This document shows, in pieces, positions 73-36,790 of a stretch of DNA of 64,000 nucleotides (position 1 is the first letter of the stretch; each line of letters starts with the position of its first letter). The notes under the pieces are model-generated. The model saw only the letters and a list, made by a program, of their open reading frames with translations. It was not told the DNA's origin and searched no databases. Position numbers and translations under genes: made by a program. The stretch is from the sequence record MT446392.1; one strand, 5' to 3'. Origin of the DNA: Escherichia virus TH15.

Positions 73-798
73 GTGACTTATAATACCTCCATGAACTTAA
101 AACAATTTATTGAAGAAAATCTTTTAACTAAAAATCCGAATAGACTAAACGGAAATTTATTTAAAAATGATTTAGAATTTGCAAAGAAATTTTGGGAAAA
201 ACATCCCGAGGAAGCAAATGCCTTTAGAGCAGAAGCACTGGAATGTCAGGGAGGTAAAAGAGAACAACATCCGTATAACGAGGTCTGTTATCGTATTTTA
301 CATGATATAAAAGGGAAAGTCCTGTGTAAGTGTGGCAAGCCTGTTAATTATCATACATTCGCGACCGGTTACCATGAATTTTGTTCAGTTAAATGCCAGG
401 GTGGTGGGGTATTTGAGGAAAAACGTATTTGCTCCATGTGTGATATTAAGTATACGGCGACTAATAGAACTCAAAAATATTGTTCAGATTCTTGTTGTCA
501 AAAGGCAAGGGATGCCAAATTGCTGGACTTATCATACAGTCATTCTATAAAGATGAAAAGACGGGATGTTCTGAAGTTAATTGAGGATACTCCGTATTGT
601 GAAATTTGTAAAATAAAACTAACAAACAATTCGTCTTCTTTATCAAAAAGCACTTGGTTCAATGTTGACCATTGTCACTCGACTGGTAAAGTCCGTGGTA
701 TTTTATGTTCAAAATGCAACATAGGACTAGGAATGTTTAAAGACAATATTGCTTCATTAGAAACCGCGATAGAATACTTGAAACAAAGCAAGGAATAA
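73..798 (+). CDS. Free-standing HNH endonuclease (endonuclease VII-type HNH motif, several Cys clusters)
   Basis: C-terminal motif VDHCHSTGKVRGILCSKCNIGLG resembles the T4 endo VII HNH core; multiple CxxC pairs. Track start 73 is GTG; first ATG at 91 has no clear SD. Confidence 0.6.
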   Translation: MTYNTSMNLKQFIEENLLTKNPNRLNGNLFKNDLEFAKKFWEKHPEEANAFRAEALECQGGKREQHPYNEVCYRILHDIKGKVLCKCGKPVNYHTFATGYHEFCSVKCQGGGVFEEKRICSMCDIKYTATNRTQKYCSDSCCQKARDAKLLDLSYSHSIKMKRRDVLKLIEDTPYCEICKIKLTNNSSSLSKSTWFNVDHCHSTGKVRGILCSKCNIGLGMFKDNIASLETAIEYLKQSKE

Positions 799-804
799 TT
801 GATT

Positions 805-2637
805 ATGATTGAAAATAAAATTGAAATGCTTTCAGATAAAGACCATTGTTTGAAACGTCCGGGAATGTACATAGGAAGTGTTTCATATGAAGAATACGAA
901 AGATTTTTATTTGGTGAATATACTAAAGTATCTTATGTGGCGGGTGTATTAAAACTAGTTGATGAGATTATTGACAACTCGGTTGATGAAGCTATACGTA
1001 CAAATTTCAAATTTGCCAATAAAATTTCCGTTGATATTTCTTTGACTGATAACAAAGTTACTGTTGAAGATAATGGCCGTGGTATTCCACAAGCTGTTGT
1101 CGTAACCCCAGAAGGGGAAGAATTGCCTGGACCGGTGGCGGCATGGACGAAAACCAAAGCGGGTGGGAATTTCGGTGATGACAAAGAACGTGTGACCGGT
1201 GGCCAAAATGGTGTGGGTTCAAGTCTTACTAATATTTTTTCAATCCTTTTTACGGGGACCACATCTGACGGTAAAAATGAGCTTCGTGTAAGTTGTTCAA
1301 ATAACGCCGATAATGTATCATGGAAAACCAAACCGACCAAATCCAATGGCACCAAGGTTGAGTTTATTCCAGACTTTAGCCATTTTGAAATGAACAGTTT
1401 TGATAAAATTTATCTGGATATTACTCTTGACCGTCTGCAGACTCTTGCTGTTGTTTATCCTGATATTGAATTCAAATTCAATGGTAAAAAGGTACAAGGT
1501 CAGTTTAAAAAGTTTGCTAAACAATATGATGATGAAATCATTATCCAGGAACAAGATAATTGCTCAATTGCAATCGGTCGGTCACCTGACGGATTCAGAC
1601 ATCTGACTTACGTCAACAACATCCACACAAAAAATGGTGGTCACCATATTGAATGTGTTATGGATGAAATGTGTGATGTGTTAATCCCAGCAATTAAACG
1701 CAAGTATAAAATTGAAGTAACCAAAGCACGCGTTAAAGAATGTATTACATTGTTGATGTTTATTCGCAATATGAAAAATATGCGGTTTGATTCCCAGACT
1801 AAAGAGCGATTGACTTCTCCGGCTGGTGAAATTAAATCACATATCCAGGTTGATGGCAAAAAGTTGGCGGGCTCGCTGTTAAAAACAGAAGCTATTCTGA
1901 TGCCCATTATTGAAGCTGCATTGGCTCGTAAATTGGCCGCAGAGAAAGCTGCAGAGACTAAGGCGAATAAGAAAGCTTCGAAGGCCAAGGTACAGAAACA
2001 TATCAAGGCTAACGAATGGGGCAATGACAAGCTGGAAACGACTCTGTTCCTGACCGAAGGAGATTCTGCAACGGGGCCATTCATCAAGGTTCGTGACCGT
2101 GAATTGCAAGGCGCTTATCCGTTACGCGGTAAGTTCAAAAACACATGGGGTCTGAAAGCTATTGAAGTTATGAAAAACGCAGAAGCCTTTGATGTGTGTG
2201 CGATTACTGGATTAACGATTGGACAACCAGCCGAGAATATGAATTACCGAAATATCGCTATCATGACAGATGCAGATGTGGATGGTGTTGGTAGTATCTA
2301 TCCATCGTTATTGGCATTTTTCAGTAACTGGCCGGAGCTGTTCCATGAAGGACGTATTCGCTTTGTGAAAACTCCTGTTATTATTGCACAACTCAAAGAT
2401 AAACAAGAATGGTTCTATTCTCTCCCTGATTATGAAGAAGCTAAGGATAAACTTCCAAAGCATACCATCAGATATATCAAGGGACTGGGTTCTCTGGAAG
2501 ATTCCGAGTACAAACGAGTATTACTCGAACCAGTATTCGAAGTTGTTCAATTACCTGACAACTGGAAAGAACTGTTCGAAATGCTTTTCGGTAAAGAACC
2601 GAAGCTGCGCAAAGATTGGATGAATGCGACGCTATAA
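805..2637 (+). CDS. 39: DNA topoisomerase II large subunit (gp39), uninterrupted
   Basis: N-terminus MIENKIEMLSDKDHCLKRPGMYIGS matches T4 gp39; GyrB-like motifs throughout; AGGA SD upstream. Track start 799 is TTG, trimmed to ATG 805. Confidence 0.9.
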   Translation: MIENKIEMLSDKDHCLKRPGMYIGSVSYEEYERFLFGEYTKVSYVAGVLKLVDEIIDNSVDEAIRTNFKFANKISVDISLTDNKVTVEDNGRGIPQAVVVTPEGEELPGPVAAWTKTKAGGNFGDDKERVTGGQNGVGSSLTNIFSILFTGTTSDGKNELRVSCSNNADNVSWKTKPTKSNGTKVEFIPDFSHFEMNSFDKIYLDITLDRLQTLAVVYPDIEFKFNGKKVQGQFKKFAKQYDDEIIIQEQDNCSIAIGRSPDGFRHLTYVNNIHTKNGGHHIECVMDEMCDVLIPAIKRKYKIEVTKARVKECITLLMFIRNMKNMRFDSQTKERLTSPAGEIKSHIQVDGKKLAGSLLKTEAILMPIIEAALARKLAAEKAAETKANKKASKAKVQKHIKANEWGNDKLETTLFLTEGDSATGPFIKVRDRELQGAYPLRGKFKNTWGLKAIEVMKNAEAFDVCAITGLTIGQPAENMNYRNIAIMTDADVDGVGSIYPSLLAFFSNWPELFHEGRIRFVKTPVIIAQLKDKQEWFYSLPDYEEAKDKLPKHTIRYIKGLGSLEDSEYKRVLLEPVFEVVQLPDNWKELFEMLFGKEPKLRKDWMNATL

Positions 2638-2679
2638 ATAGATGTGGGAGAATATTCTCCCGTCTTATAGGAGAAGTCC

Positions 2680-2832
2680 ATGAAAAAGTGGTGGGTTACG
2701 TTGTCAAATGGCGAATACGGTTATCTGTGGGCCGATACTAAACCCTTGTTTGCATCCTTTGTCACCATTATGTGTGAGACCTGGGATGGTGAATACTATA
2801 CCGCATATGGGCAAGTCTATAAAGTTGAGTAA
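2680..2832 (+). CDS. Small hypothetical protein (50 aa, Trp-rich)
   Basis: ATG preceded by AGGAG; flanked upstream by a perfect 16-nt palindrome and downstream by an intrinsic terminator. Confidence 0.3.
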   Translation: MKKWWVTLSNGEYGYLWADTKPLFASFVTIMCETWDGEYYTAYGQVYKVE

Positions 2833-2834
2833 CC

Positions 2835-2859
2835 AAAGGACCTTCGGGTCCTTTTTTAT
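2835..2859 (+). terminator. Intrinsic terminator (UUCG tetraloop hairpin plus T-run)
   Basis: aaaggaccttcgggtccttttttatt. Confidence 0.7.
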
Positions 2860-2907
2860 TATGTACAGGCCACAAAAATTGTGTTAAGATGTCCTTGAGG
2901 TGAAAAT

Positions 2908-3207
2908 ATGATTATGTCTGACGGAAGTTTAGTTAATCTGCAGAATGTCGCGCGATGCATTATGGAAGCTGGTCTGAGGAAGGTACAGGAGCTCCCAGAT
3001 AGCGACAGGAAGCGAAGTTACTTGTTGGCTGTAAGAACATCAGCCATGAGCATAAAGGATGGTCAGAAGGTCCCAGAGGAGCGAATTGAAGCACTCCTTG
3101 CATTGATATACCATGACCAAGAACATAAAGCTACCATGCGTAGTATGAGAAAAATATTGCAGGAGATTGGAAATGACGAACTTCAAAGTGAATCTGGAAC
3201 TGTTTGA
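2908..3207 (+). CDS. Hypothetical early protein
   Basis: ORF with GAGG SD; positional analogue of T4 rIIA.1-region ORFs. Confidence 0.4.
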   Translation: MIMSDGSLVNLQNVARCIMEAGLRKVQELPDSDRKRSYLLAVRTSAMSIKDGQKVPEERIEALLALIYHDQEHKATMRSMRKILQEIGNDELQSESGTV

Positions 3208-3376
3208 CAAGGTTGTCCATAAAGAATACCGTGTTATCCAACGATTTTTTGATATAAGAGAAGCTGAAGAGTTTAAAGAACGCTTCAAAGAAATCCGTAT
3301 TAAAATAGCTTCAGACACCGCAACAAAGGATGAACTTCTTGAAGTTGCAGACTTATTCAAACGTAATATAAAGTGA
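3173..3376 (+). CDS. Hypothetical protein (67 aa)
   Basis: ATG at 3173 with AGGAG SD 7 nt upstream (track start 3167 is TTG); overlaps previous ORF. Confidence 0.35.
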   Translation: MTNFKVNLELFDKVVHKEYRVIQRFFDIREAEEFKERFKEIRIKIASDTATKDELLEVADLFKRNIK

Positions 3377-3383
3377 GAAAAAC

Positions 3384-5618
3384 ATGATTTTAGAAACTGA
3401 AAAAGAAACAATCCTTGGTAATGGTGCCAAGGCATCAGCATTCACAATCCAGGCATCTCCAAAGGTGTTTAAGATTCTGACCAGCGACCTTTACACAAAT
3501 AAGGTGCGTGCAGTTGTTCGTGAGCTGATTACCAATATGATTGATGCTCATATGCTCAATGGCTGTCAGGATAAATTCATTGTTCAAGCTCCTGGTGAAC
3601 TGGACCCACGCTTTGTGTGTCGTGACTTTGGCCCAGGTATGAGTGATTTCCAGATTCGTGGTGATGAAAATACCCCAGGTCTGTATAACAGTTTCTTTGC
3701 ATCATCCAAGGCTGAATCCAATGATTTTATTGGTGGCTTTGGTCTGGGTTCTAAATCTCCGTTCAGTTATACAGAGACGTTTAGCCTGATTTCGTATCAT
3801 GATGGTCAAGTTAATGGTTATGTCGCTTATATGGATGGTGATGGTCCACAGATTAAGCCAACCTTTAGCGAACCAATGAAACCTGGCGACCGCACAGGGA
3901 TTGAAGTTGTTGTCCCGGTTGATAGTAATGATTTTGGTAAGTTCCGCCACGAGATTGCATATATCATGCGCCCATTTGCTGGACTGGCTGAAGTACAAGG
4001 CGTAGGCGAAATTAATTATTTCCCGGAATTTGATGATTATTATGCTCCAGAGCGTATTAATTATAGCAGCCCAGAACGTTATGGTCTTTATGCAATTTAC
4101 GGTGGAATTGTTTATCCAATTGCCGACGGTTATACAAAGAAAACCTGGATGACTGCCAAAAATGATGTTGTCTTTATTAAGTTCCCGATGGGTTCGTTGG
4201 ATATTGCGCCTTCTCGCGAAGCATTATCACTGGATAAACGTACGGTCGCAAATATCGTTGAACGTATTGAATCCCTTGATAAGAAAGTCATGGAAGATGA
4301 TTGTAAGAAATGGCAGGAATCAGAATGTATCCGCCACACGTATCGCGAATTACAGAGTCTGAGTTATGAAGCTCGTAATTTTCTGAAAGCTCGTAATGCT
4401 GAAACGAAATTTACGAAATCGCAATTGACCTTTAACCAGATGTATGAAATGTTCGAGCTGGACAAAGACCTTATTAATGCCGGGGTTGTCTATGATATCT
4501 ATAGCACTACCCGTCTGAAACGTCTGCGTAACTCAAGCTCGAACACGAATACTGCAAGCCTGACGAGCATGTTTGGTATTCAGAATAATACCTTGAACAT
4601 TGTTATTGACGATGCTAAAGGGCGAATTGCGATGATTCGGGGCATCAGTTCAATGCTGTATGACACCAGCGCGAAAGCCAAAAAGCTCAAAGCATCTGGT
4701 AAAGTCCCGACTGTACAAGGTAGTAGCCTATTGTTCGTTGACCCAACCAGCGAAATTCAAACACGTCTGATGGTTCAACTCCAGGAACGATTTAAAGGCG
4801 ATACAGTTAATATCTATCGTACGTCTGAACTGACTGCCCTTGTAAAAGATTGGATTCCGGTTGCGGACCCGAAAGAGCGTGTTAAGTCAAAGACTCCATC
4901 GGTGATTCGTTGGACTAAAACTAATGGTCGCTGGCAGGCTGTTGAAGAATTTACATGTGCAGCTGATGCAGAGGAAATCGATGGTTATGCTGTATTCATT
5001 AACCGCAGTAGCATTTCCCCGTTGAATCAGGATTATGGCGTCACGAACTTCGGGACCCAGACATTGTGCAAACTGGCGAATCTACTGGAAATCAATGAAT
5101 TCTGCGTTATTCGTCCACAGCTTCAGAAAAAGGTTACTAAGCTGGCGCAGTGTGATTGTTTGATTGAAGCTGCAGTCAATCGTTATGTGGAATTGATTGA
5201 TGCGGTTGATGCGGACCAGTACATTGCCGCTTCAAGCCGTTCGCGTTATTATATTCCTATCCTGTCTGAATATGCAGAACTGAATTTTATGTTCAAGTAT
5301 TTTTATGCAAAAGACGTTCAGAAAGATGTGAATACTGACTATGCCGAACTAATGCAGTTCAATAAGTTCTTTTCTTATAACGCATATAACAGCGGAACGG
5401 TTGACAAGACCATGCAGGAAACTCTGGTCCTTTGTAATAAGATTTATGACGACCTGACCAAAAACGCTTCAGTAACAAGCGATAAAATGGTTTTTGAATT
5501 TGAAAAGAATCACCCGATTGTTTCACACTTTTTATATAATCGTAACGCTATGTCAACTGAACAAGTACAGAACGTTGCTCAAATCATGAAGGCCGTGGAA
5601 GCGGCCAATAAGGAATAA
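3384..5618 (+). CDS. rIIA: rIIA membrane-associated protein (lysis-inhibition / Rex exclusion target)
   Basis: 744 aa versus T4 725 aa; position between 39 and rIIB matches T4 synteny. Confidence 0.85.
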   Translation: MILETEKETILGNGAKASAFTIQASPKVFKILTSDLYTNKVRAVVRELITNMIDAHMLNGCQDKFIVQAPGELDPRFVCRDFGPGMSDFQIRGDENTPGLYNSFFASSKAESNDFIGGFGLGSKSPFSYTETFSLISYHDGQVNGYVAYMDGDGPQIKPTFSEPMKPGDRTGIEVVVPVDSNDFGKFRHEIAYIMRPFAGLAEVQGVGEINYFPEFDDYYAPERINYSSPERYGLYAIYGGIVYPIADGYTKKTWMTAKNDVVFIKFPMGSLDIAPSREALSLDKRTVANIVERIESLDKKVMEDDCKKWQESECIRHTYRELQSLSYEARNFLKARNAETKFTKSQLTFNQMYEMFELDKDLINAGVVYDIYSTTRLKRLRNSSSNTNTASLTSMFGIQNNTLNIVIDDAKGRIAMIRGISSMLYDTSAKAKKLKASGKVPTVQGSSLLFVDPTSEIQTRLMVQLQERFKGDTVNIYRTSELTALVKDWIPVADPKERVKSKTPSVIRWTKTNGRWQAVEEFTCAADAEEIDGYAVFINRSSISPLNQDYGVTNFGTQTLCKLANLLEINEFCVIRPQLQKKVTKLAQCDCLIEAAVNRYVELIDAVDADQYIAASSRSRYYIPILSEYAELNFMFKYFYAKDVQKDVNTDYAELMQFNKFFSYNAYNSGTVDKTMQETLVLCNKIYDDLTKNASVTSDKMVFEFEKNHPIVSHFLYNRNAMSTEQVQNVAQIMKAVEAANKE

Positions 5619-5619
5619 T

Positions 5620-6594
5620 ATGTTTAATATCAAATGTATGTCTAAAGCCGAACAAGCTGATGTGGTCCAGATGTATTCAACGGGCAATTATACCCAGCCT
5701 GAATTGGCAGAATATTTTGCTGTGTCCGTTGACACCATTCGCCGCGTTTTGAAAAATGATAAAGAATCAAAATTAGCTAAAACCATTTCTGCATCACTGA
5801 AAGCAGCTGTTGGTGTGGCGATTAATGCTCCGGTGACAGTAACGGTTGAAGTTCCGGTTGTTGAAGATACAATCGGTGGAAGCCGCCCGGAAATCGTATG
5901 GAACGCATCGAGTAAATTCGTTTCCATCACTGAAGGCCGTACAGTCTGGAACGCAACAAAAGACCATAAACACTTTGATGATATTATTCAGGCATTGATT
6001 GAATTCCGTTATGAAGATGCTATTGAGTATATCTCAATCAAAGCCGCAGTGCAAAAATATGTGAAAGGTGATGTGCGTATCGAAGGCGGTAGTTTGTTCT
6101 ACCAGGGAATTGAACTGCGCTCTGGTCTGGTTACTCGTATCATCGATTCAATGCAAAATGGCGAAGACTTTGAATTCTATCTGCCATTCCTTGAGAATCT
6201 CCTTGAGAACCCGAGCGAGAAAGCCGTACAGCGTTTGTTTGACTTCCTGGTTGCGAATGATATCGAAATCACCGAAGACGGTCATTTCATCGCCTGGAAA
6301 ATGGTTCGTTCAACCTACAAAGATTGTCACTCAAACACATTCGACAACAGTCCTGGTCAATATGTTAAAATGCCACGCTCTCGTGTGAATGACAATGACG
6401 AACAGACCTGTTCAACCGGGCTGCACGTTTGTTCTAAAGGTTATATCGGAAGTGGTTTTGGTCATGGTGATGGGCGCATCGTATCCTGTAAAGTTCACCC
6501 GCGTGATGTTGTAAGCATCCCGGTGGATTATAACGATTCCAAAATGAGGGTTTGTGGTTACCTGGTTCTTGACGATGTAACTGAACAATTCTAA
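5620..6594 (+). CDS. rIIB: rIIB protein
   Basis: N-terminus MFNIKCMSKAEQADVVQMYSTGNYTQPELAE and C-terminal HPRDVVSIPVDYNDSKMR closely match remembered T4 rIIB. Confidence 0.85.
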   Translation: MFNIKCMSKAEQADVVQMYSTGNYTQPELAEYFAVSVDTIRRVLKNDKESKLAKTISASLKAAVGVAINAPVTVTVEVPVVEDTIGGSRPEIVWNASSKFVSITEGRTVWNATKDHKHFDDIIQALIEFRYEDAIEYISIKAAVQKYVKGDVRIEGGSLFYQGIELRSGLVTRIIDSMQNGEDFEFYLPFLENLLENPSEKAVQRLFDFLVANDIEITEDGHFIAWKMVRSTYKDCHSNTFDNSPGQYVKMPRSRVNDNDEQTCSTGLHVCSKGYIGSGFGHGDGRIVSCKVHPRDVVSIPVDYNDSKMRVCGYLVLDDVTEQF

Positions 6595-6627
6595 ATTAAT
6601 CGGGGCTTCGGCCCCTAATGAGGCTTT

Positions 6628-6825
6628 ATGTTAGGTTTCCAAGCACGTGTAGTTGAAGAATATGACCAACTGGTCCTAAAAATCAATGCTCTTGAAGAGT
6701 TTATTAAAGGTGGTATTTTTGAAACTCTTGATATCCGTCAACAAGGGTTACTGATTGCACAGCTGGATGCGATGGGTGCTTATGCTCATTGTTTAGCAGT
6801 TCGTATTTCTTATTTTGGTGAATAA
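6628..6825 (+). CDS. Hypothetical protein
   Basis: ORF with GAGG SD, directly after a GC hairpin downstream of rIIB. Confidence 0.3.
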   Translation: MLGFQARVVEEYDQLVLKINALEEFIKGGIFETLDIRQQGLLIAQLDAMGAYAHCLAVRISYFGE

Positions 6826-6828
6826 ATT

Positions 6829-7098
6829 ATGATTAAGCATTTCAATGTGTCAGACCGTGACATCAAAGTTTCAAATCTCCGGGGTCATCATTATGCAGGA
6901 ACAGTTTACTGTGGTAAGCTCATCAAGCATGAAGGTGATGTTCACTATGGCTGGTTGGAATGTGATGAAGTAGTTGTTGGGGAATTTCCTGACCCAGATT
7001 CTGATACATTTGATGCTAATGACCGTTTGTACTATGGCGAGCTTCATATCCGAGGAATCGTCGGTATCGATGAGGTTCAAGATGATTCAGAAGAGTAA
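6829..7098 (+). CDS. Hypothetical protein (acidic C-terminus)
   Basis: ORF of 89 aa, tightly packed after the previous ORF. Confidence 0.4.
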   Translation: MIKHFNVSDRDIKVSNLRGHHYAGTVYCGKLIKHEGDVHYGWLECDEVVVGEFPDPDSDTFDANDRLYYGELHIRGIVGIDEVQDDSEE

Positions 7099-7675
7099 AA
7101 CATGGGAGCATCTGAAAAAGATGCCCTCCTTTCTTTATACAAAGGAAGACTTAACACCCGAATCCATGCAAAAGATTGTAGACACTGCCAGGTATTCATT
7201 GCGTAAAGACCCAGCCCAGGACCGCGAGCAAGTCATGCAAAGATGTATGGTGGCTACAATGGCCGAACAAGCTATTGCCAAATGGACCTCCGGTTTCTTA
7301 TGTGGCGGCGATGAAGATTACAATAACCCGTTCTCTTTTGCATTCGATGTAGTCTCCCAGGAAGGGGTAAGAATCGAAGTTAAGACTCACCAATCTGGCT
7401 CCAAATGGATATCCGTGCATACTGGTCACCAGGGCGATTATCCACGTGGTTACGGAGTTAATCTTGGGCCCTTTATGCAACACAAGCTTGCTGACCTTAT
7501 GATTATGTTTAATGTAAAAGAGACTATCAAAGGTTATAGATTTAAACCAAAATTCCTTGCTGGACCTGGTGCTTTCGTTCCTGAGTCTGGACTTGTGCAG
7601 AAGTCACAAGGGGATGGCTGGTACCTCCGTTCTTGTTCAGAAGAAAAATTTCCCTATCACCGGTTTACAAGCTGA
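7082..7675 (+). CDS. Hypothetical protein; positional candidate for denB (endonuclease IV)
   Basis: About 197 aa from the internal ATG with GAGG SD; lies between rIIB and ndd where T4 carries denB (185 aa). Identity not verified by sequence. Confidence 0.4.
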   Translation: MIQKSKTWEHLKKMPSFLYTKEDLTPESMQKIVDTARYSLRKDPAQDREQVMQRCMVATMAEQAIAKWTSGFLCGGDEDYNNPFSFAFDVVSQEGVRIEVKTHQSGSKWISVHTGHQGDYPRGYGVNLGPFMQHKLADLMIMFNVKETIKGYRFKPKFLAGPGAFVPESGLVQKSQGDGWYLRSCSEEKFPYHRFTS

Positions 7676-7720: not shown

Positions 7721-7722
7721 TC

Positions 7723-7998: not shown

Positions 7999-8000
7999 TC

Positions 8001-8056: not shown

Positions 8057-8072
8057 CAAACTGGAGAATAAA

Positions 8073-8228: not shown

Positions 8229-8238
8229 GGAAAACAGA

Positions 8239-8642: not shown

Positions 8643-8650
8643 AGATGATT

Positions 8651-26794: not shown

Positions 26795-27068
26795 TTTCGA
26801 TACACAGAAAACTGAATCGCCTTCCGGGGCGATTAGTAAACAGCAAAACGGGCTTGATATTGAAGCCATGGTTGAGTCAACTGAAATGTCTTATCTGGAA
26901 GCTACGACTGCCTGGTTGGAAGAACGTGGTGTTCCTGAGGGTAATTTTGCTCGATATATCCCGGCAGGAATCATTGATAAGATTATGAATGAAGCATATG
27001 ATGATAACCTGCTTCGTCCGAGTATGTCTCGTACACAGAAAACTAATACGCTGGACTTTTTGTTATGA
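26775..27068 (+). CDS. 33: Late-promoter transcription co-activator gp33
   Basis: Internal ATG with GGAG SD; C-terminus EATTAWLEERGVPEGNFARYIPAGIIDKIMNEAYDDNLLRPS...KTNTLDFLL matches remembered T4 gp33. Confidence 0.8.
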   Translation: MMSSLVNFDTQKTESPSGAISKQQNGLDIEAMVESTEMSYLEATTAWLEERGVPEGNFARYIPAGIIDKIMNEAYDDNLLRPSMSRTQKTNTLDFLL

Positions 27069-27718
27069 TTACGATTCGCATGCCTCCAAATAACAACCGA
27101 TACATAAATGGTAAATCAGTATATCAACTGTACTTATCCATCAAACAGCATTTTTCGGGTCGTTATGATATTATCAAATATAACTGGACCATGCGAATCT
27201 CCGATAGTGCTTATCAAAAACGTCGTGACAAGTATTTTTTCGAAAAGCTTAGCGATAAGTACACTCTCAAAGAATTAACGTTAATATTCATGTCAAACCT
27301 GGTCGCGAACCAGGATGCATGGATAGGTGATATAAGTGATGCCGATGCTCTTATATTTTATAGGGAATACATCGGCAGACTTAAAAGAATTAAACAAGTA
27401 TACGAAGATGATATAAAGAACATCTATTACTTCAGTAAGAAAGTCGAAGTCAAATCGCTTCAAGAGATTTTCGAGTATAATACTAAAGTGAACACAAGTT
27501 ATATTTTCAAACTTCTCCAATCAAATGTTATTTCATTTGAAACGTTTTGTTTGCTTGATTCATTTTTAGACATTATAAATAAACATGATGAACAGACTAA
27601 CGACTTGGTTTGGGAAAAGTATTCGACCAAACTAACTGCCTATAAGAAAATCTTAAATATAGATTCTCTTGAAGCTCGTAAATTGTTCATCGAGACCGTT
27701 AAAGGGTGTAAGTTTTGA
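27065..27718 (+). CDS. 59: Helicase loader gp59
   Basis: 217 aa as in T4; DKYFFEKLSDKYTLKELTLIFMSNLVANQDAWIGDISDADALIFYREYIGRLK is near-identical to remembered T4 gp59. Confidence 0.9.
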   Translation: MITIRMPPNNNRYINGKSVYQLYLSIKQHFSGRYDIIKYNWTMRISDSAYQKRRDKYFFEKLSDKYTLKELTLIFMSNLVANQDAWIGDISDADALIFYREYIGRLKRIKQVYEDDIKNIYYFSKKVEVKSLQEIFEYNTKVNTSYIFKLLQSNVISFETFCLLDSFLDIINKHDEQTNDLVWEKYSTKLTAYKKILNIDSLEARKLFIETVKGCKF

Positions 27719-28386
27719 ATGTTGTATATTGGTTTACATTTGAAACTCGTCTGAAAAATAAAACGCCTCCTTATTTTTACATTGGGTCAAAGCATAATTG
27801 TGCTTTTGAAAATGGTGTTATAATTGATTTGAAATACACGTCAAGAAGAGAATATTGGTCCTCCTGTGAGCAACCTGATTTTCTTGAAGCTATTCAACTC
27901 GAAAAGCCGACAGTCAAAATACTTGATGTCTGCGAAGATGTTTTGGACGAGGAAGAGTGGTACCACGCCCATTATAATATACCAAAATCCCCGCTATTCT
28001 TTAATAAAGCAACGGCTCGTGGTGTATTCGGTGGTGCTGGTGAACGTGCTCCAAGATATGGAATGAAAAATTCCGCACATACAAATAAATGCATTTCGGA
28101 AGCACAAAAAGATGTTCCAAAAAGTATGGAGCATAAGAAATCAATTTCTGAAGGCCTAAATCGCTTTTATGAAAAAGATGATAAAATAAATAACATCAGA
28201 GGTAATGAAGTGATAAAAACTCTTAGTGATTCTGCTAAGCGTCGTTACTCAAACCCTGATAATATTCATCCCAAAGGGTTTAAAGGTAAAAAATTACCAA
28301 GAGTTATTTGTGATTTATGTGGATATGAAACATCTATAAATCATTTAAAACGTCATCGTGATAAATGCGCTTTAAATAAAAAGTAA
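27715..28386 (+). CDS. GIY-YIG homing endonuclease (segG-like, free-standing) with NUMOD-like repeats and C-terminal zinc finger
   Basis: N-terminal VYWFTF...YFYIGSK (GIY-YIG); repeated (I/L)SEAQK-type helices; CDLCGYETSINHLKRHRDKC. Sits between 59 and 32 as T4 segG does. Only in-frame start is TTG. Confidence 0.7.
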   Translation: MNVVYWFTFETRLKNKTPPYFYIGSKHNCAFENGVIIDLKYTSRREYWSSCEQPDFLEAIQLEKPTVKILDVCEDVLDEEEWYHAHYNIPKSPLFFNKATARGVFGGAGERAPRYGMKNSAHTNKCISEAQKDVPKSMEHKKSISEGLNRFYEKDDKINNIRGNEVIKTLSDSAKRRYSNPDNIHPKGFKGKKLPRVICDLCGYETSINHLKRHRDKCALNKK

Positions 28387-28444
28387 TATAATTAATACGT
28401 AATCAAAACAACTGTTAAAAATCAAATAATCTAAGGAAAATCAT

Positions 28445-29356
28445 ATGTCTATGTTTAAACGTCGTAACCCAGCTGACCTCGCCGCTTCCCTGAATGCACT
28501 TAAAGGTGGTTCTGGTTTCTCTTCTGACGATAAAAAAGAATGGAAACTGAAAGATACTGATGGCGTCGGCTCTGCGGTTATTCGTTTCCTGCCTTCCAAG
28601 AATGAAGAAAATCCATCTCCGTTCATCAAGCTCGTTAACCACGGCTTTAAAAATGGCGGTCAATGGTATATTGAAAACTGTACTTCCACTCACGGCGATT
28701 ATGAAAACTGCCCTGTGTGTGCGTACATGAATAAGAATGACCTGTACAACACAAACGAATCCGAATATCGTAAACTGAAGCGTAATACTTCTTACTGGGC
28801 TAACATCCTGGTCATTAAAGACCCTGCTGTTCCGTCTAACGAAGGTCAAGTATTCAAATATCGCTTCGGCAAGAAAATCATGGACAAAATCAACCAGATG
28901 GTTGAAGTCGATGTTGACATGGGCGAAACAGCTATTGACGTAACTTGTCCTTTTGAAGGTGCAAACTTTGTACTGAAATCTAAACTGGTTTCCGGTTATA
29001 AAAACTACGATGATTCCAAATTCATGAACCAGTCCGAAATCGCTGGTATCAATGATGAAGCATTCCAGAAAAAACTTTGGGACGAAATGTCTGACCTGAA
29101 TGAATTGCTGGTGTTTAAATCCCTTGAAGAGAATCAGAAGAAATTCTCTAAAGTAATGGGTACGGCTGCTCTCGGCGGTGCTGCTTCTAAAGCTGCTGCA
29201 CAAGCTGATAAACTGGGCGCTGACCTGGACGATTTTGATAAAGATATGGAAGATTTCACTTCCAGTAAACCTGCTAAGTCTGAACGCACTGCGACTGCTC
29301 CAAGCACTCCAGAGCCTTCTGATGATGGTCTTGACGACCTTCTGGCTGGCCTTTAA
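28445..29356 (+). CDS. 32: ssDNA-binding protein gp32
   Basis: 303 aa; [24 protein letters not shown], zinc-site region [10 protein letters not shown], and acidic C-terminus ending DDLLAGL match T4 gp32. Confidence 0.95.
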
Positions 29357-29360
29357 TATA

Positions 29361-29390
29361 AGGGGACCTTCGGGTCCCTTTTTTATTTTC
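29361..29390 (+). terminator. Intrinsic terminator downstream of gene 32
   Basis: aggggaccttcgggtcccttttttatttt. Confidence 0.8.
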
Positions 29391-29446
29391 AAAAAGTAGT
29401 GTACAAGTCCTTTGAGCTAAGGCATAATGATTCCATACTGAGTTAC
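29391..29446 (+). promoter_or_regulatory. Early promoter cassette copy 3 (after the gene 32 terminator)
   Basis: aaaaagtagtgtacaagtcc...gcataatgattccatactgagttac; -35 29400-29405, -10 29423-29428. Confidence 0.6.
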
Positions 29447-29471
29447 ACGATAAACAACCGAGGAAATTAAA

Positions 29472-29843
29472 ATGATGGAAACTGGTAAATTTTATACATT
29501 AGACCCTGCTGCCAAAAAACAATTCATCGCTGGTAGTCCTGATGACAATTCGCGCATGGTCAAGCTGATGGGACAACATGGCAGTTCCTTCAAAGTCCTG
29601 GATATGTGCTATATTGATGGCGATTATTTTGTCGAAAAAGTTGAAATGAAAGATGGCACCATCCTTGATAGTATGGATGGTGCTGATGAGTACTTTGAAC
29701 TCGCTGAGTGGGAATTCCGTCACTTCCTGGAAGTGGATGAAGCTCCAGCTCCTGTTGTTGACACGCAAACCATTCATGTGCAAGTCAATCACAAAAATGC
29801 TGCTGAAGTCATTGCCCTGATTAAAGCTACCTTTGGAATTTAA
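29472..29843 (+). CDS. Hypothetical early protein (paralog family member A)
   Basis: GKFYTLDPAAKKQFIAG and DEYFELAEWEF shared with the ORFs at 30166 and 43181; own promoter cassette upstream. Confidence 0.5.
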   Translation: MMETGKFYTLDPAAKKQFIAGSPDDNSRMVKLMGQHGSSFKVLDMCYIDGDYFVEKVEMKDGTILDSMDGADEYFELAEWEFRHFLEVDEAPAPVVDTQTIHVQVNHKNAAEVIALIKATFGI

Positions 29844-30106
29844 TATGACTAAAGATGATTTCCTGGATGCAGTAGAAAAAGCCAGCGAACAGTTTGAAGT
29901 GATGGGTGTACGTGTCCATAAAGACCGAAATTACGGACTTGATGTTCAAACGTATTCTCTATGGCTTGTAGGGCGAGCATAGTCTTGTAACCACTTTAGT
30001 TATGGGTGTAGATACTTATCCTTTGTTAGTCAAGTTCAGAAGTCTGGAAAAAGCTACTAAAGAAATGACCAAACTTGGTAAATGGCTCGACAAAATTTAA
30101 AAAGTT

Positions 30107-30135
30107 GTTTACAATATCTTTAAACATGATATTAT
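30107..30135 (+). promoter_or_regulatory. Early promoter (GTTTAC -35, 17-nt spacer, TATTAT -10)
   Basis: Matches the T4 early-promoter -35 consensus; followed by the agacctatcaa leader also seen at 30562. Confidence 0.55.
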
Positions 30136-30165
30136 AGACCTATCAAAACAAATGAGGAAATTAAA

Positions 30166-30528
30166 ATGGAAATCGGCAAAAAATATGAGTTCAATCCACA
30201 TCGTATTAAATCTTTCATTGATATTAGTTCATCAAATGCTAATATGGTCGACATCATCCAAGAAAATGGCGGTTGGTTTGAAGTTAAATCAATATCAAGT
30301 GCAGACGGTTATGATTATGTAACCGAAGTCATTTTTGCTAATGGCACAATCTATAATGATGATGGTATGGGTGACGAGTATTTTGAACTTAGTGAAGAAG
30401 AGTTTTATTGCTTCCGCGAATACTCCAGTTATACAAAAACACCTTCAGGAGCGGTTTCTATTAATTGTGTTGTAGATGCTAATAACGTTGACCAAATCAT
30501 TGAACTTCTACAAAAAGCTTTCAAATAG
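30166..30528 (+). CDS. Hypothetical early protein (paralog family member B)
   Basis: GKKYEFNP...DEYFELSEEEF and C-terminal IIELLQKAF parallel the ORF at 29472; own GTTTAC/TATTAT promoter. Confidence 0.5.
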   Translation: MEIGKKYEFNPHRIKSFIDISSSNANMVDIIQENGGWFEVKSISSADGYDYVTEVIFANGTIYNDDGMGDEYFELSEEEFYCFREYSSYTKTPSGAVSINCVVDANNVDQIIELLQKAFK

Positions 30529-30530
30529 CA

Positions 30531-30561
30531 GTTTACAAAGGGTCTATGGTTGAGATATTAT
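30531..30561 (+). promoter_or_regulatory. Early promoter (GTTTAC / TATTAT) with inverted repeat ggtctat / atagacc
   Basis: Sequence gtttacaaagggtctatggttgagatattatagacc. Confidence 0.5.
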
Positions 30562-30590
30562 AGACCTATCAATTACATGAGGAAAATAAA

Positions 30591-30818
30591 ATGGCTAAAG
30601 TTAATATTGATATCGTTGATTTTGAATACACTTATGAAGTTATCCGTAATCGTTATCCTTCTTTGAGTATGACTTACATCAAAGATACCCAATTCTTTAG
30701 TATCCAAATTGAAATCCAAGGTCCTCTTGAAGACCTGACTCGTTTTATGGCTGACGAGTATTGTGATGGTATGCATGCTGAAGATGCTGAATTTTATATG
30801 GGCTTAATCCAAAAATAA
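30591..30818 (+). CDS. Hypothetical early protein
   Basis: ORF with GAGGA SD and its own early promoter. Confidence 0.45.
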
Positions 30819-30820
30819 AT

Positions 30821-30851
30821 GTTTACAACAGGGCTATGGTAGTGATACTAT
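30821..30851 (+). promoter_or_regulatory. Early promoter (GTTTAC / TACTAT) with inverted repeat ggctat / atagcc
   Basis: Sequence gtttacaacagggctatggtagtgatactatagcc. Confidence 0.5.
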
Positions 30852-30877
30852 AGCCTTACCAACTTGAGGAGAATAAA

Positions 30878-31117
30878 ATGAAATTAAAACGTGAGAGCAT
30901 CAAAGATTCAGAAGTTAAAGGTAAATGGTACTTCACAATCCAGGGTAACAATCCTGAAGCTCTGGAAAAAGCAGAAGAAACTTTGTGTGCAATGGGTTGG
31001 AAAGATGAGTGTGATGGTTGTCCTCTTTATGAAGATGGTAGCTCATCTGGTTTCTGGATTCACCACTCTGATGTTGACCAATTTAAAGCTGACTGGAAAA
31101 TCGCTAAGAAAGCGTGA
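30878..31117 (+). CDS. Hypothetical early protein
   Basis: ORF with GAGGAG SD and its own early promoter. Confidence 0.45.
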   Translation: MKLKRESIKDSEVKGKWYFTIQGNNPEALEKAEETLCAMGWKDECDGCPLYEDGSSSGFWIHHSDVDQFKADWKIAKKA

Positions 31118-31127
31118 GGAAAATATA

Positions 31128-32903
<1,776 letters not shown>

Positions 32904-32904
<1 letters not shown>

Positions 32905-33107
32905 TGAATATTCGTATAGTAAACAATAGATACGGCACCCGTGAGGTGCTGTTTGAAAAAATGAATATAAGTCTCGATGAACTGCCTAAAGAGAAAACAA
33001 CGATTTTTGTTCAGGGTAAAGAACTTTATGTTATGCGTGTGATTAAATCATATGAATATCACGATTTAACCCAGCACCAGTCTATCTGGTTTATTGTCGA
33101 GGTCTAA
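32904..33107 (+). CDS. Hypothetical protein
   Basis: 67-aa ORF coupled to the td stop. Confidence 0.35.
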
Positions 33108-33168
33108 TGAAAATTCAAATTGCCGGTATTTTATTTCTGGTCGTAATGGTCGGACTTAACTTCCTACT

Positions 33169-33468
33169 ATGAAAGCCTGTCGGGTTGTTAACAAATATCA
33201 ATCCGACTTTGATGTGAATATTCAACGGGGTACCATGTGGGGAAACCCATATAAAGATGGTACCCGAGAAGAAAACATAAAGAACTTTAAAGAATATTTC
33301 ATATCAAAGATTAAATCGGGTGAAATCAAAAGAGAACACCTTGAAACCCTACGCGGAATGCGATTGGCCTGTACATGCAAACCAAAAGCATGCCATGGCG
33401 ATGTTATCGCCCTGGTCGTTAACAAACTTTTCAAAGATACCTTTTCGCTCGAGGATTTGGGAGCATAA
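33169..33468 (+). CDS. Small conserved protein with CTC...CHGD motif (possibly DUF4326-like)
   Basis: 99 aa; RVVN...GTMWGNPY...LACTCKPKACHGDVIALV pattern recalled from DUF4326-type proteins; assignment from memory only. Confidence 0.45.
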   Translation: MKACRVVNKYQSDFDVNIQRGTMWGNPYKDGTREENIKNFKEYFISKIKSGEIKREHLETLRGMRLACTCKPKACHGDVIALVVNKLFKDTFSLEDLGA

Positions 33469-33527
33469 ATACGATTCCGCTTCAGGGCACTGTGATATAA
33501 TTATTTAAAATTTAATGAGAGGAAATT

Positions 33528-33773
33528 ATGAATTTACGATTTAAACGCCAGACTGGCGAAGTCATTTTTGAAATGCTGCAATTTACCGAACAGGATTTAC
33601 CGGCACCAAATTCTTATATCACTATTGACGGAATCAAATTTCTGGCCAAACGTCATGAACGTGTCTACTGTCATGATTCAGCCGGTGACGTCCAGTCATA
33701 TTTTGACATCACCATCCAGTCAGAAGAAGAATATAATGATGAAATGTCTTCGGAACTGCCAGAGTCAATTTAA
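33528..33773 (+). CDS. Hypothetical protein (acidic)
   Basis: ORF with GAGAGG SD. Confidence 0.45.
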   Translation: MNLRFKRQTGEVIFEMLQFTEQDLPAPNSYITIDGIKFLAKRHERVYCHDSAGDVQSYFDITIQSEEEYNDEMSSELPESI

Positions 33774-33806
33774 GGTTCCCAACCCTTTTGAACTATAGAG
33801 GAAAAC

Positions 33807-36062
33807 ATGCAAGTACAAAAAAGTAGTGGTGTCTCTCAAGATTTTGATGGCCAGAAAATTATTAAAGTTCTTTCCTGGTCATGTGAAGGAACTAATATCG
33901 ACCCGTATGAATTATACGAAACAATCAAACCACATCTGCGCGATGGTATGACTACCCGCGATATTCAGACGGTTATCATCAAAGTGTCTGCTGGGCTTAT
34001 TTCGGTCGAAGAACCGGATTATCAATATGTTGCAGCGAAGGCTACGATGTTTGCTCTGCGTAAAGATGTTTATGGGCAATTCGAGCCACGTTCTTTTATT
34101 GACCAGATTTCTTATTGTGTTAATGAAGGCAAATATGACCCGGAACTGTTGTCAAGCTACTCCGCCGAAGAGATTACTTATCTGGAATCTCGTATCAAGC
34201 ACGAACGCGATTTTGACCTGACTTATGCAGGCGCGATGCAGTTGAAAGAGAAATACCTGGTTAAAGATAAAACCACTGGTAAAATCTACGAGACTCCACA
34301 ATTCGCTATCATGGCTATCGGCATGGCACTGTACCAGGATGAACCAACGGACCGTCTGAAGCACATTTGCCGTTTTTATGATGCAGTATCCACAAGACAG
34401 GTTTCGTTGCCCACACCTATCATGGCGGGCGCCAGAACACCCACCAGGCAGTTCAGTTCCTGCGTGGTTATCGAAGCTGCAGACTCCCTGAAGTCAATCA
34501 ATAAGACTGCCAATTCAATCATCGAATATATCAGTAAGCGTGCGGGTATCGGCATCAACGTTGGTATGATTCGTGCTGAAGGTTCGAAAATCGGTATGGG
34601 TGAAGTTCGTCATACTGGTGTTATTCCGTTCTGGAAACATTTCCAAACGGCTGTTAAATCCTGTTCACAAGGTGGAATCCGTGGCGGCGCTGCTACTGCT
34701 TATTATCCTTTATGGCATTTGGAAGTTGAAAATTTACTCGTTCTGAAGAACAACAAGGGCGTTGAAGAAAACCGCATCAGACATATGGACTATGGTGTCC
34801 AGTTGAATAACATGATGATGGAACGTCTGGCTAAGAATGATTACATCACTCTGTTTAGTCCACATGAAGCTGGTGGTGAATTGTATTATTCATATTTTGA
34901 TAACCCGGATAAATTCCGCGAGTTATATGAAGCCTTAGAAAAAGACCCGACAGTTCGTAAGAAACGTATCAAAGCAAAAGACCTGTTCGAATTATTCATG
35001 ACCGAACGTTCCGGCACTGCCCGAGTTTATCCACAGTTCGTTGATAACGTGAATGACTATACTCCGTTCATCCGCGATAAGGCTCCGATTCGTCAATCAA
35101 ACCTTTGTTGTGAAATTGCAATCCCGACTACTGATGTAAACAGCGAAGATGCTGAAATCGGATTGTGCACATTGTCTGCATTTGTTCTGGATAGTTTTGA
35201 CTGGCAGGACCAAGATAAGATTAACGAGCTGGCTGAAGTTCAAGTTCGTGCTCTTGATAATCTGTTGGACTACCAAGGTTATCCGGTTAAAGAAGCTCTG
35301 AAAGCCAAAAAACGTCGCAACTTGGGCGTTGGTGTTACCAACTACGCTGCATGGCTGGCAAGCAATTTCGCTTCCTACGCCGATGCAAACGATTTAACCC
35401 ATGAATTATTTGAGAGATTACAATATGGCCTTATCCGAGCATCCATCAAGCTCGCCAAAGAAAAAGGACCTTGCGAATATTATTCAGACACTCGTTGGGC
35501 TCGAGGCGAATTACCTATCGACTGGTACAATAAAAAGATTGACCAAATCGCAGCTCCAAACTACGTTTGTGACTGGGCGCAGCTGCGGGAAGACCTGGTT
35601 GCACATGGCATCCGTAATAGCACCTTATCTGCGCTCATGCCTTGCGAGTCGAGCAGCCAAGTTTCAAATAGTACCAACGGTATCGAACCTCCGCGTGGTC
35701 CAGTAAGTATTAAGGAAAGTAAAGAAGGTTCCTTTAACCAGGTTGTTCCAAATATCGAGCATAATAAAGGATTGTACGATTACGCATGGGTACTGGCTAA
35801 ACAAGGTAATAAACCTTATCTGACTCAAGTCGCGATTATGTTGAAATGGATTTGTCAGTCAGCATCAGCAAACACTTATTATGACCCGCAGAATTATCCG
35901 AAAGGAAAAGTTCCGATGTCAGTTATGCTTGACGACTTGATGTACGGTTGGTATTATGGAATCAAGAATTTTTACTATCACAATACTCGTGATGGCTCGG
36001 GAACTGACGATTACGAATTGGAAATGCCAAAAGCTGATGATTGCTCGGCATGTAAACTGTAA
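33807..36062 (+). CDS. nrdA: Ribonucleotide reductase class Ia large subunit
   Basis: 751 aa versus T4 754 aa; ATP-cone N-terminus and catalytic-site motifs (NLCCEI, PCESSSQ). Confidence 0.95.
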   Translation: MQVQKSSGVSQDFDGQKIIKVLSWSCEGTNIDPYELYETIKPHLRDGMTTRDIQTVIIKVSAGLISVEEPDYQYVAAKATMFALRKDVYGQFEPRSFIDQISYCVNEGKYDPELLSSYSAEEITYLESRIKHERDFDLTYAGAMQLKEKYLVKDKTTGKIYETPQFAIMAIGMALYQDEPTDRLKHICRFYDAVSTRQVSLPTPIMAGARTPTRQFSSCVVIEAADSLKSINKTANSIIEYISKRAGIGINVGMIRAEGSKIGMGEVRHTGVIPFWKHFQTAVKSCSQGGIRGGAATAYYPLWHLEVENLLVLKNNKGVEENRIRHMDYGVQLNNMMMERLAKNDYITLFSPHEAGGELYYSYFDNPDKFRELYEALEKDPTVRKKRIKAKDLFELFMTERSGTARVYPQFVDNVNDYTPFIRDKAPIRQSNLCCEIAIPTTDVNSEDAEIGLCTLSAFVLDSFDWQDQDKINELAEVQVRALDNLLDYQGYPVKEALKAKKRRNLGVGVTNYAAWLASNFASYADANDLTHELFERLQYGLIRASIKLAKEKGPCEYYSDTRWARGELPIDWYNKKIDQIAAPNYVCDWAQLREDLVAHGIRNSTLSALMPCESSSQVSNSTNGIEPPRGPVSIKESKEGSFNQVVPNIEHNKGLYDYAWVLAKQGNKPYLTQVAIMLKWICQSASANTYYDPQNYPKGKVPMSVMLDDLMYGWYYGIKNFYYHNTRDGSGTDDYELEMPKADDCSACKL

Positions 36063-36790
36063 TGAATTATCAAAACATTTATAATAATTTAATATCCCGG
36101 GGTAAAACCCGGGAACCTTTAGCCGAATATAAAGAGATTCATCATATTATCCCAAGATGTATGGGTGGTACTGATGAAAAGACAAACCTTGTCGAGTTAA
36201 CAGCTCGAGAACATTTTATTGCTCATTTACTTTTATGCAAAATAAATCCCGGTCATTTTGGATTAGTCTCGGCCCTAACTTTAATGGCAACAGATAAAGC
36301 TGGAAATCGTATTAATAATAAATTGTATAGTTTCCATCGAAAGCTATTTGCCAAAGCAAATTCCGAATTCTTTAAGGAACACTGGAAAAATAACCCACAC
36401 CCCCGCGGTATGTTGGGTAAGCATCACAGTGAAGAATCTAAACAAATTGTAAGCGAAAAGAATAAGTTAGCTGTTCCATCTACAGAAATTTATCAATTTA
36501 CTCTCGATGGTGAATTTGTTGAAAAATTTAGGTCATTACAAGAGGCGGCGAGGACTGTAAATGGAAACGCGTCAAACATCAAGTATTGTGCAAGTGGAAA
36601 ATTTCAATATGCGTATGGATTTAGATGGTCATATTCGCTTCAACCCACATTTGATAAAATAACTCCACGACAATATAAAGGTGCCCGTGGTAAAATCTGT
36701 ATTAATGACGGGTTTACAAATAAATTAATTGAATCCTCTGAAATTATCCCCGATGGATGGGTCAGAGGAAGGATAAAGGTTAATAAATGA
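36062..36790 (+). CDS. HNH homing endonuclease (mobE-like, free-standing between nrdA and nrdB)
   Basis: HHIIPRCMGGTDEKTNLVELTAREHFIAH HNH motif near the N-terminus; C-terminal DNA-binding-type repeats; same location as T4 mobE. Confidence 0.7.
   Translation: MNYQNIYNNLISRGKTREPLAEYKEIHHIIPRCMGGTDEKTNLVELTAREHFIAHLLLCKINPGHFGLVSALTLMATDKAGNRINNKLYSFHRKLFAKANSEFFKEHWKNNPHPRGMLGKHHSEESKQIVSEKNKLAVPSTEIYQFTLDGEFVEKFRSLQEAARTVNGNASNIKYCASGKFQYAYGFRWSYSLQPTFDKITPRQYKGARGKICINDGFTNKLIESSEIIPDGWVRGRIKVNK

Follow-up and report, generated by a model that had tools for sequence, protein, structure and literature searches.

How can a free-standing homing endonuclease gene (HEG) be lodged directly upstream of a gene that the phage needs, yield little nuclease, and still leave that gene expressed? 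The question is posed three times in a 64,000-nucleotide (nt) stretch of Escherichia virus TH15 (sequence record MT446392.1), referred to here, at its full length, as the window. One HEG lies upstream of gene 39, a second, SegG-type gene between genes 59 and 32, and a third, MobE-type gene between nrdA and nrdB. In T4-like phages, free-standing homing endonucleases are a driving force behind mosaicism and marker exclusion, and the window provides a clean natural example: three sites are occupied, and two have the foreign flanking tracts that are expected from co-conversion.

The answer that we consider likely is the same for all three genes. Each HEG would lie just upstream of the conserved gene that is most probably cut in phages without the HEG (gene 39, gene 32 and nrdB, respectively), and each would be wired into the host transcription units in such a way that little nuclease is produced while the essential downstream gene is still expressed. 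In T4, half of the free-standing endonuclease genes have no recognisable initiation region, and several overlap the upstream open reading frame (ORF); such features have been read as negative regulation (PMC2988022). The proposal that weak initiation limits nuclease expression in the window would match this published view.

Three occupied sites in a Gaprivervirus genome

The window belongs to the VR7/VR26/RZ group of Gaprivervirus. Matches to its first 20 kb are Gaprivervirus phages (UPEC01, TH40, VR26, RZ and others) at 91–93% identity, and the records retrieved for these relatives give Straboviridae, Tevenvirinae, Gaprivervirus. The plus strand, on which the three HEGs, their neighbouring genes and the promoter-like elements lie, corresponds to the minus strand of T4, and the gene order is T4-like (39, rIIA, rIIB, ..., 52, ..., t, 38–34, rnh, dsbA, 33, 59, 32, frd, td, nrdA, nrdB).

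A previous reading, made from the sequence alone, had placed three free-standing homing-type endonucleases in this stretch, and all three ORFs were found at those places (73–798, 27715–28386 and 36062–36790). Their occurrence at fixed positions in related genomes, with no presence/absence polymorphism, had been named as an observation that would speak against this reading; what is found is clear presence/absence polymorphism at all three sites. Each of the three genes is missing from the majority of close relatives; when some 68 kb of the HEG-poor UPEC01 are compared by BLAST, the three are the only window-specific insertions above 600 nt. VR26 carries the first nuclease gene only, YenP8 carries mobE only, and RZ carries the first nuclease gene, mobE and a type B segG; VR7 has a different allele of the first nuclease together with a type A segG, and no mobE. 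The window's combination of three alleles was found in no database genome. Further HEGs in the window were considered and rejected: the candidate ORF at 6974–7675 is DenB, and the comparison with UPEC01 shows no other large insertion.

The nuclease gene upstream of gene 39

The first gene (91–798) encodes a protein of 235 amino acids (aa) with a Cys-rich N-terminal region and a C-terminal ββα-Me nuclease domain. It is identified from Pfam, from its motif and from the starts of its orthologues as an Endo VII-motif (DHHRN/F-CphI-type) free-standing HEG. Pfam Endonuclease_7 (PF02945) matches residues 161–237 of the 241 encoded by the longer ORF at 73–798 (E = 4.8e-18), and the CX2C..DHCH..R..CX2C-N motif is complete, running as CEIC, 19 aa, DHCH, KVRG and CSKCN within residues 170–210 of 235. 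This motif defines the DHHRN (F-CphI) homing endonuclease family, of which VR7 gp6, assigned to the endonuclease clade, has been named a probable free-standing member (Fang et al. 2018, PMC6083498). VR7 gp6 is 49% identical to the window protein and occupies the same genomic site. Copies that are at least 94% identical occur only in VR26 and RZ; UPEC01 and YenP8 lack the gene.

The Pfam match, together with public records that say 'endonuclease VII', could also be taken to point to a second gp49-like enzyme, with the protein acting as a nuclease in structure-specific resolution or in repair and not in homing. This is highly improbable. The motif is C-terminal, following a Cys-rich region of 160 aa, as in the F-CphI/Hpy99I endonuclease clade and unlike the resolvase clade (PMC6083498); the best relative in the PDB is the restriction enzyme Hpy99I (E = 1.2e-8), whereas the match to T4 Endo VII is marginal (E = 0.35); and the patchily distributed gene is linked to a foreign tract in gene 39, described below. 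As a homing endonuclease, the protein would presumably cleave HEG-less gene 39 site-specifically.

A start codon at the predicted transcription start of the middle promoter

The sequence-only reading had offered two starts for this gene, a GTG or an ATG without a Shine–Dalgarno (SD) sequence. GTG73 is indeed the first possible start codon, and ATG91 follows ACCTCC with no SD; it is the ATG that is conserved as a start, since the orthologues begin at its equivalent, and the GTG is not. An extension of the 91–798 gene to GTG73 is therefore unlikely.

What lies directly upstream gives this ATG an unusual position. A motif scan places a MotA-type middle promoter, the homologue of T4 P39, at 58–84, with the MotA box ATTGCTTTA at 58–66, a 12-nt spacer and the −10 hexamer TATAAT at 79–84. 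The promoter is identical in the HEG-less UPEC01 and YenP8, where it precedes the 5′ untranslated region of gene 39. In HEG-less genomes the intergenic region consists of a terminator hairpin (GGCCTTCGGGCC plus a T run), the MotA box TTGCTTTA, 12 nt, TATAAT, ACCTCCAT and the gene 39 leader with its SD. Genomes that carry the HEG are identical to these through ACCTCCAT and then continue into the nuclease ORF; the ATG arises at this left junction, with 6 nt between it and the −10 hexamer.

In T4, too, gene 39 is preceded by this hairpin, MotA box, 12-nt spacer and TATAAT, and the P39 transcription start is listed at 5349 (PMC2988021 Table 1). By our mapping, this is the seventh nucleotide after the −10 hexamer, and the seventh nucleotide in the window is A91. 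By analogy with T4, A91 is thus the predicted +1, and the middle transcript would begin with AUG91, that is, as a leaderless mRNA. In that case the middle transcript would not include GTG73 at all, the codon being upstream of it.

The arrangement recurs. A MotA box, a spacer of 12–13 nt, a −10 hexamer, 6 nt and an ATG are found in four lineages, namely that of the window and three metagenomic ones, whose nucleases are 47–74% identical. The 6-nt spacers between the −10 hexamer and the ATG (ACCTCC, ATTCCC, ATTTCC and TCTTTT) vary in sequence while their length is constant. The first 45 nt of the ORF, which are A-rich, are 84–96% identical between alleles; among the diverged alleles, nt 46–450 are 53–68% identical and the 3′ remainder 61–78%.

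These observations allow a more specific proposal. The point of insertion of the HEG would coincide precisely with the +1 of the gene 39 middle promoter, such that the AUG became the 5′-terminal triplet (5′-AUGAAC...) of the middle transcripts; these would be leaderless and hence weakly translated. On read-through early transcripts the AUG would stand behind ACCUCC with no SD, and such transcripts would be left untranslated in the nuclease frame. The only source of nuclease would thus be leaderless mRNA, with a low yield that is confined to the middle period, and with the AUG-at-+1 geometry kept in at least four diverged T4-like lineages. We put this forward tentatively, as a serious possibility. 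If true, it would be a mode of homing endonuclease control outside the mechanisms listed for T4, and a case of natural leaderless translation in a T4-like phage; a confirmed leaderless start would be a new item among the ways in which selfish genes are kept at low expression. A literature search on leaderless mRNA and homing endonucleases in phages yielded nothing relevant, and no description was found in the literature of an AUG at the +1 of a MotA-dependent promoter for such a nuclease.

The picture is somewhat complicated by the state of the terminator that precedes P39. At window positions 47–60, the hairpin AAGGCCTTCGGGCCTTTTT, as found in T4, VR26, RZ, VR7, UPEC01 and YenP8, is reduced to AAGGCCTT joined to ATT. 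The 8 nt were deleted between GGCCTT direct repeats, which removed the 3′ arm, and in this phage transcription should run on into the nuclease gene and gene 39 more often. With its upstream terminator crippled, the window might seem to permit translation of a 241-aa nuclease from GTG73 on read-through transcripts from upstream early promoters, with the spacing between ATG91 and the promoter a mere relic of insertion. The codon is in frame with no intervening stop, one homologue (P0022) has been called at 241 aa, and VR26 has been annotated from a still earlier ATG. Even so, this is distinctly unlikely: GTG73 sits in the promoter spacer without an SD, the equivalent codon is GAG in the sequences L011 and L019, and neither of these has any other start codon ahead of its ATG. 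The extension of P0022 stems from a different upstream context, the upstream ATG of VR26 does not exist in the window (which reads AATAAG there), and the annotators of RZ and VR7, like most gene calls, picked the ATG.

A side observation concerns the ACCUCC hexamer itself. In read-through transcripts of HEG-less genomes (L004 1535–1560), base-pairing is possible between the gene 39 SD (GAGG) and the ACCUCC that lies immediately ahead of the P39 start, which suggests sequestration of the SD on long transcripts in these genomes. In genomes with the HEG, the same ACCUCC (window 85–90) now stands ahead of the nuclease AUG.

A foreign tract and a candidate second promoter for gene 39

Gene 39 (805–2637; Pfam), encoding the topoisomerase II large subunit, is unsplit, with an ORF of 612 aa. 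Its first part differs strikingly from the remainder. From 799 to about 1900, some 1.1 kb, the window is only 65–70% identical to UPEC01, YenP8 and VR7, and 97–99% identical to RZ and VR26; after about 1900, gene 39 is 90–97% identical to all genomes, the first comparison rising to 91–95% there. Measured against HEG-less genomes as a whole, nt 1–1100 of gene 39 are 69% identical. VR7, which has the other nuclease allele, retains native gene 39. The window-type nuclease and a foreign 5′ part of gene 39 therefore move together. A tract of this kind would be expected if a diverged donor had been the source of a co-conversion, and it suggests a target within gene 39.

Within this region, the window and RZ are about 99% identical over the first 1.1 kb of gene 39, most 60-nt windows being 100% identical, and only about 88% identical in the adjacent nuclease gene (synonymous divergence, dS, 0.62). 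This contrast suggests recombination between HEG-carrying alleles.

The insertion separates gene 39 from its middle promoter, and a replacement seems to be provided by the nuclease gene. The motif scan finds a candidate middle-promoter-like element at 748–775, consisting of ATTGCTTCA, 13 nt and TAGAAT, within the last 50 nt of the ORF. It is kept in all seven alleles examined, including those that are 47–49% identical in protein, and the SD of gene 39 (AAGGA) follows the nuclease stop. This second MotA-type promoter, together with the SD, would re-supply a promoter for gene 39 and restore its expression. An 'embedded promoter' arrangement of this kind has been reviewed for T4 HEGs (PMC2988022).

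The SegG-type gene between genes 59 and 32

The second gene (27715–28386) encodes a SegG-type GIY-YIG free-standing homing endonuclease of 223 aa. Its TTG start lies on the TGA stop of gene 59 (TTGA), the helicase loader gene at 27065–27718 (Pfam). That TTG is the sole available start had been noted from the sequence, and this is borne out: an in-frame TAA at 27709–27711 leaves no alternative upstream. The TTG is common to types A and B of the gene (defined below), and TTGA over the gene 59 stop also occurs in the diverged lineages L022 and L023; L024 has ATGA at the same position. This recurrence across lineages supports TTG as the real segG start, presumably used by termination–reinitiation. 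The UUG on the UGA of gene 59 (UUGA) would probably be reached in this manner with help from a weak GGGUG 6–7 nt upstream.

Other features of this junction did not hold up. A hairpin that sequesters the ribosome-binding site at the segG start was looked for, and the fold is no better than that of shuffled sequence (z = −0.6). A gp59–SegG fusion by frameshifting at AAG-TTT-TGA was rejected, as a +1 slip on the T run stops after 9 codons and a −1 slip needs re-pairing of tRNA-Phe with GUU. A late promoter for segG (TATAAATA at 27574–27581) was also set aside, being present in HEG-less relatives and degenerate in VR7 and RZ, and thus no conserved feature of the HEG.

The 59/32 site exists in three states: empty in about 20 Gaprivervirus genomes, occupied by type A (window, VR7), or occupied by type B (SP18, RZ, TH22, TH55, UPEC07, DK-13). 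Where the HEG is inserted, the final codons of gene 59 have been exchanged: the gene ends in ..VKGCKF* with the HEG and in ..VKNCQITLQAL* without it. The type A copy of VR7 (gene 32.1, L006 10923–11471) is frameshifted by a 1-nt indel to 182 aa and has lost its C-terminal zinc finger; the window copy is intact.

Description of the gene as 'segG-like' is correct for the N-terminal catalytic domain and the position, and does not extend to the C-terminal domain, which differs from that of T4 SegG. The GIY-YIG fold is recovered by fold search, and the conserved Tyr (GIY), Tyr-x-Gly (YIG), Glu and Asn are present; a sequence-profile search of the PDB for I-TevI, starting from the SegG family, found nothing. 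The C-terminal zinc finger, compared with T4 nrdB.1, shows only a weak 23-aa match (E = 0.013).

As at gene 39, the 3′ end of the HEG overlaps a promoter-like element for the gene downstream. Read from the sequence, and with a T4 precedent (PMC2988022), the candidate gene 32 middle-promoter element at 28367–28392 consists of GCGCTTTA, 12 nt and TATAAT. The MotA-like box of the gene 32 promoter would thus fall into the last codons of segG, with the −10 hexamer just after the HEG stop; in HEG-less genomes, gene 59 ends with CGCTTCA, 12 nt and an identical TATAAT. Gene 32 itself (28445–29356), encoding the single-stranded DNA-binding protein, is the likely target of the SegG-type enzyme by analogy with T4 SegG (PMC2988022 Table 1). 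Its first 60 nt or so are slightly diverged (83–88%) from the HEG-less P8 and UPEC01 and from the type B RZ.

The MobE-type gene between nrdA and nrdB

The third gene (36062–36790) encodes a MobE-type HNH free-standing homing endonuclease of 242 aa with HNH and NUMOD1 regions (Pfam, phrog_655). The HNH motif EIHHIIPRCMGGTDEKTNLVELTAREH (HH..N..H) aligns residue for residue with T4 MobE. The Pfam HNH profile scores below its cut-off (18.5 versus 21.4 bits), NUMOD1 scores above, and phrog_655 matches at E = 4e-59. Over its full length, the protein is 72–73% identical to MobE of other Tequatroviruses. RZ and YenP8 also have mobE, and VR7 and UPEC01 do not; the HEG-less genomes have a 38-nt spacer with its own SD between nrdA and nrdB. 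An ATGA overlap had been reported for this gene, and needs to be assigned to its other end. The start junction with the nrdA stop is TAATGA, with an ordinary ATG that is presumably coupled to this stop, and the ATGA is formed by the mobE stop and the start of nrdB (36787–36790).

A GC-rich hairpin lies 33 nt into mobE (36095–36114; fold z = −2.9), at the position of the internal terminator of T4 mobE. In T4, this hairpin is an experimentally shown terminator (PMC2790892), and mobE expression is limited by both the UAAUGA overlap and the hairpin (PMC2790892, PMC2988022). The same sequence of controls may apply here, with the mobE AUG on the nrdA stop followed by an internal hairpin of the kind that terminates most transcripts in T4, and with nrdB served from a candidate promoter in the 3′ part of mobE. 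This candidate middle promoter (36633–36660), proposed by analogy with T4 (PMC2790892), consists of ATTCGCTTCA, 12 nt and TAAAAT, with a deviant MotA box.

The nrdB gene (36787–37965; Pfam) is uninterrupted, and both of the genes that flank mobE contain diverged sequence. The last 450 nt or so of nrdA are 73–88% identical to mobE-less relatives. In nrdB, nt 21–140 (36807–36926) are 77–82% identical to all four relatives examined, including the mobE-carrying RZ and YenP8; the amino-acid changes are T8K, P9Q, A14E and Q43S, and several positions are shared with T4. The MobE nick site has been mapped in nrdB of T2 (PMC2790892). At the equivalent codons 42–43, the window has AAA TCC and the relatives have AAG CAA, and of the 30 nt around the site, 7 are different in window nrdB. 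By analogy with these phages, window MobE may nick nrdB in phages without mobE.

Active elements or domesticated remnants

Diverged tracts are linked to two of the three genes, namely the 1.1-kb tract in gene 39 and the combined nrdA 3′ end and nrdB 5′ end. Pairwise omega (dN/dS) values are 0.06–0.35 in the HNH family of the gene 39-proximal nuclease and 0.06–0.44 in the SegG-type family, which therefore comprise functional proteins and not debris. The elements may still be mobile at present.

Several observations weigh against the overall explanation. The promoters are motif matches only, and a +1 position can shift by 1–2 bases, which would give a leader of 1–2 nt or lose the AUG. With 8 nt lost from the terminator hairpin upstream of P39, read-through transcripts should be more frequent, and in these the AUG is internal. 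In VR7 and RZ, the late-promoter motif TATAAATA ahead of segG is not preserved. Window SegG has Asp55 (codon 27877–27879) at the column of an Arg in T4 SegG (KQKRF), possibly the equivalent of I-TevI R27. Lastly, the nick-site region of the mobE-carrying RZ and YenP8 is identical to that of mobE-less relatives, and the T4/T2 model of immunity or target may therefore not transfer directly.

Some of these points would equally suit the view that the three genes are decaying or domesticated remnants, without homing, that are kept for the promoters and ribosome sites of the downstream genes, the weak starts being signs of decay. The frameshifted segG-type copy of VR7, Asp55 in place of the Arg, and the lack of nick-site polymorphism in RZ and YenP8 are all in keeping with it, and embedded promoters would select against deletion (PMC2988022). 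Such decay is nonetheless unlikely in view of the state of the genes. The window ORFs are intact and keep all DHHRN, HNH and GIY-YIG Tyr/Glu/Asn residues; omega values are well below 1, also for the catalytic domains of SegG proteins of the D55 type, which are under purifying selection (0.12–0.15); the geometry of the starts, far from random, has been kept across lineages; and recent transfer is indicated by the patchy distribution and the linked foreign tracts. Across 18 homologues, all full-length, the Arg column holds R in nine, D in seven and L in two. Low-output HEGs, each upstream of its probable target, thus remain the preferred explanation.

Other features of the window

The absence of introns from td and nrdB, also put forward in the sequence-only reading, was confirmed: both genes are full-length contiguous ORFs that span their Pfam profiles. 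The thymidylate synthase gene td (32044–32904) encodes 286 aa and covers profile positions 1–266 of 266, and nrdB encodes 392 aa. A search for group I introns found no Rfam family at gathering thresholds across the whole 64 kb. VR7, RZ, YenP8 and UPEC01 likewise have no introns in these genes.

UPEC01 has an insertion of about 680 nt between uvsW.1 and uvsW (L017 22585–23184), in a segE-like position and annotated 'group I intron endonuclease'. The window (62331–62347) lacks it, so that this is a further polymorphic HEG site, empty here. Among the small genes of the frd.x type, two blocks of about 650 nt are in the order opposite to that in UPEC01: window 29460–30114 corresponds to UPEC01 86338–86988, and window 30147–30812 to UPEC01 85619–86284.

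Comparison with known systems

The three genes are members of families already described, and close relatives have been annotated before as putative or homing endonucleases; the interpretation of their weak starts is sound, and is not new. New here are the comparative support for the UUG start of segG and the AUG-at-+1 geometry proposed for the gene 39 nuclease. Two previously uncertain starts, the UUG coupled to the gene 59 stop and the SD-less AUG at the promoter +1, are now well supported, which should aid annotation in this phage group.

The gene 39-proximal nuclease shares the C-terminal CX2C..DH(x)H..R..CX2C-N motif with F-CphI, and its nearest solved relative, Hpy99I, falls into the same 'endonuclease clade'. 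F-CphI adjoins the psbA intron in a cyanophage, whereas the window gene lies upstream of gene 39 with no intron, and its N-terminal region is larger and Cys-rich. In its location the gene is reminiscent of T4 mobA, an HNH gene between 39 and 60 with gene 39 as its predicted target and a predicted GUG start (PMC2988022). In both cases a free-standing nuclease gene with a non-canonical predicted start is tied to a topoisomerase large-subunit gene. Unlike the window nuclease, MobA belongs to a different nuclease family, and its gene is downstream of gene 39 and splits it; the window gene is upstream and gene 39 is unsplit.

The SegG-type gene shares with T4 segG (gp32.1; Liu et al. 2003, cited in PMC2988022) the 59/32 site, an N-terminal catalytic domain that is 54% identical over 115 aa (E = 4e-41), and gene 32 promoter elements at or inside the 3′ end. 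It differs in its UUG on the gene 59 stop, where T4 has an AUG one nucleotide after the stop, and in its C-terminal DNA-binding half, which is unrelated and composed of helical repeats and a C-terminal zinc finger; its target sequence may therefore differ from that of T4 SegG.

The MobE-type gene resembles T4 mobE (Wilson & Edgell 2009, PMC2790892) most closely at its 5′ end: the insertion site is the same, the UAAUGA start overlap is identical, and the first 105 aa, the N-terminal half, are 56% identical. The T4 hairpin is in the same place with a different stem sequence, and is then followed by the same AACCUUUA as in the window. The C-terminal halves differ. That of the window protein carries NUMOD1, whereas in the T4 reference (mobE plus nrdB.1, L009 4217–4917) mobE stops after 141 aa, with nrdB.1 as its continuation in a different frame; the C-terminal part in T4 is also seen to be unrelated to the NUMOD1 C-terminus of the window and of many Tequatrovirus MobE proteins. 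Finally, in contrast to T4, the window has no nrdB intron for MobE to carry along in trans.

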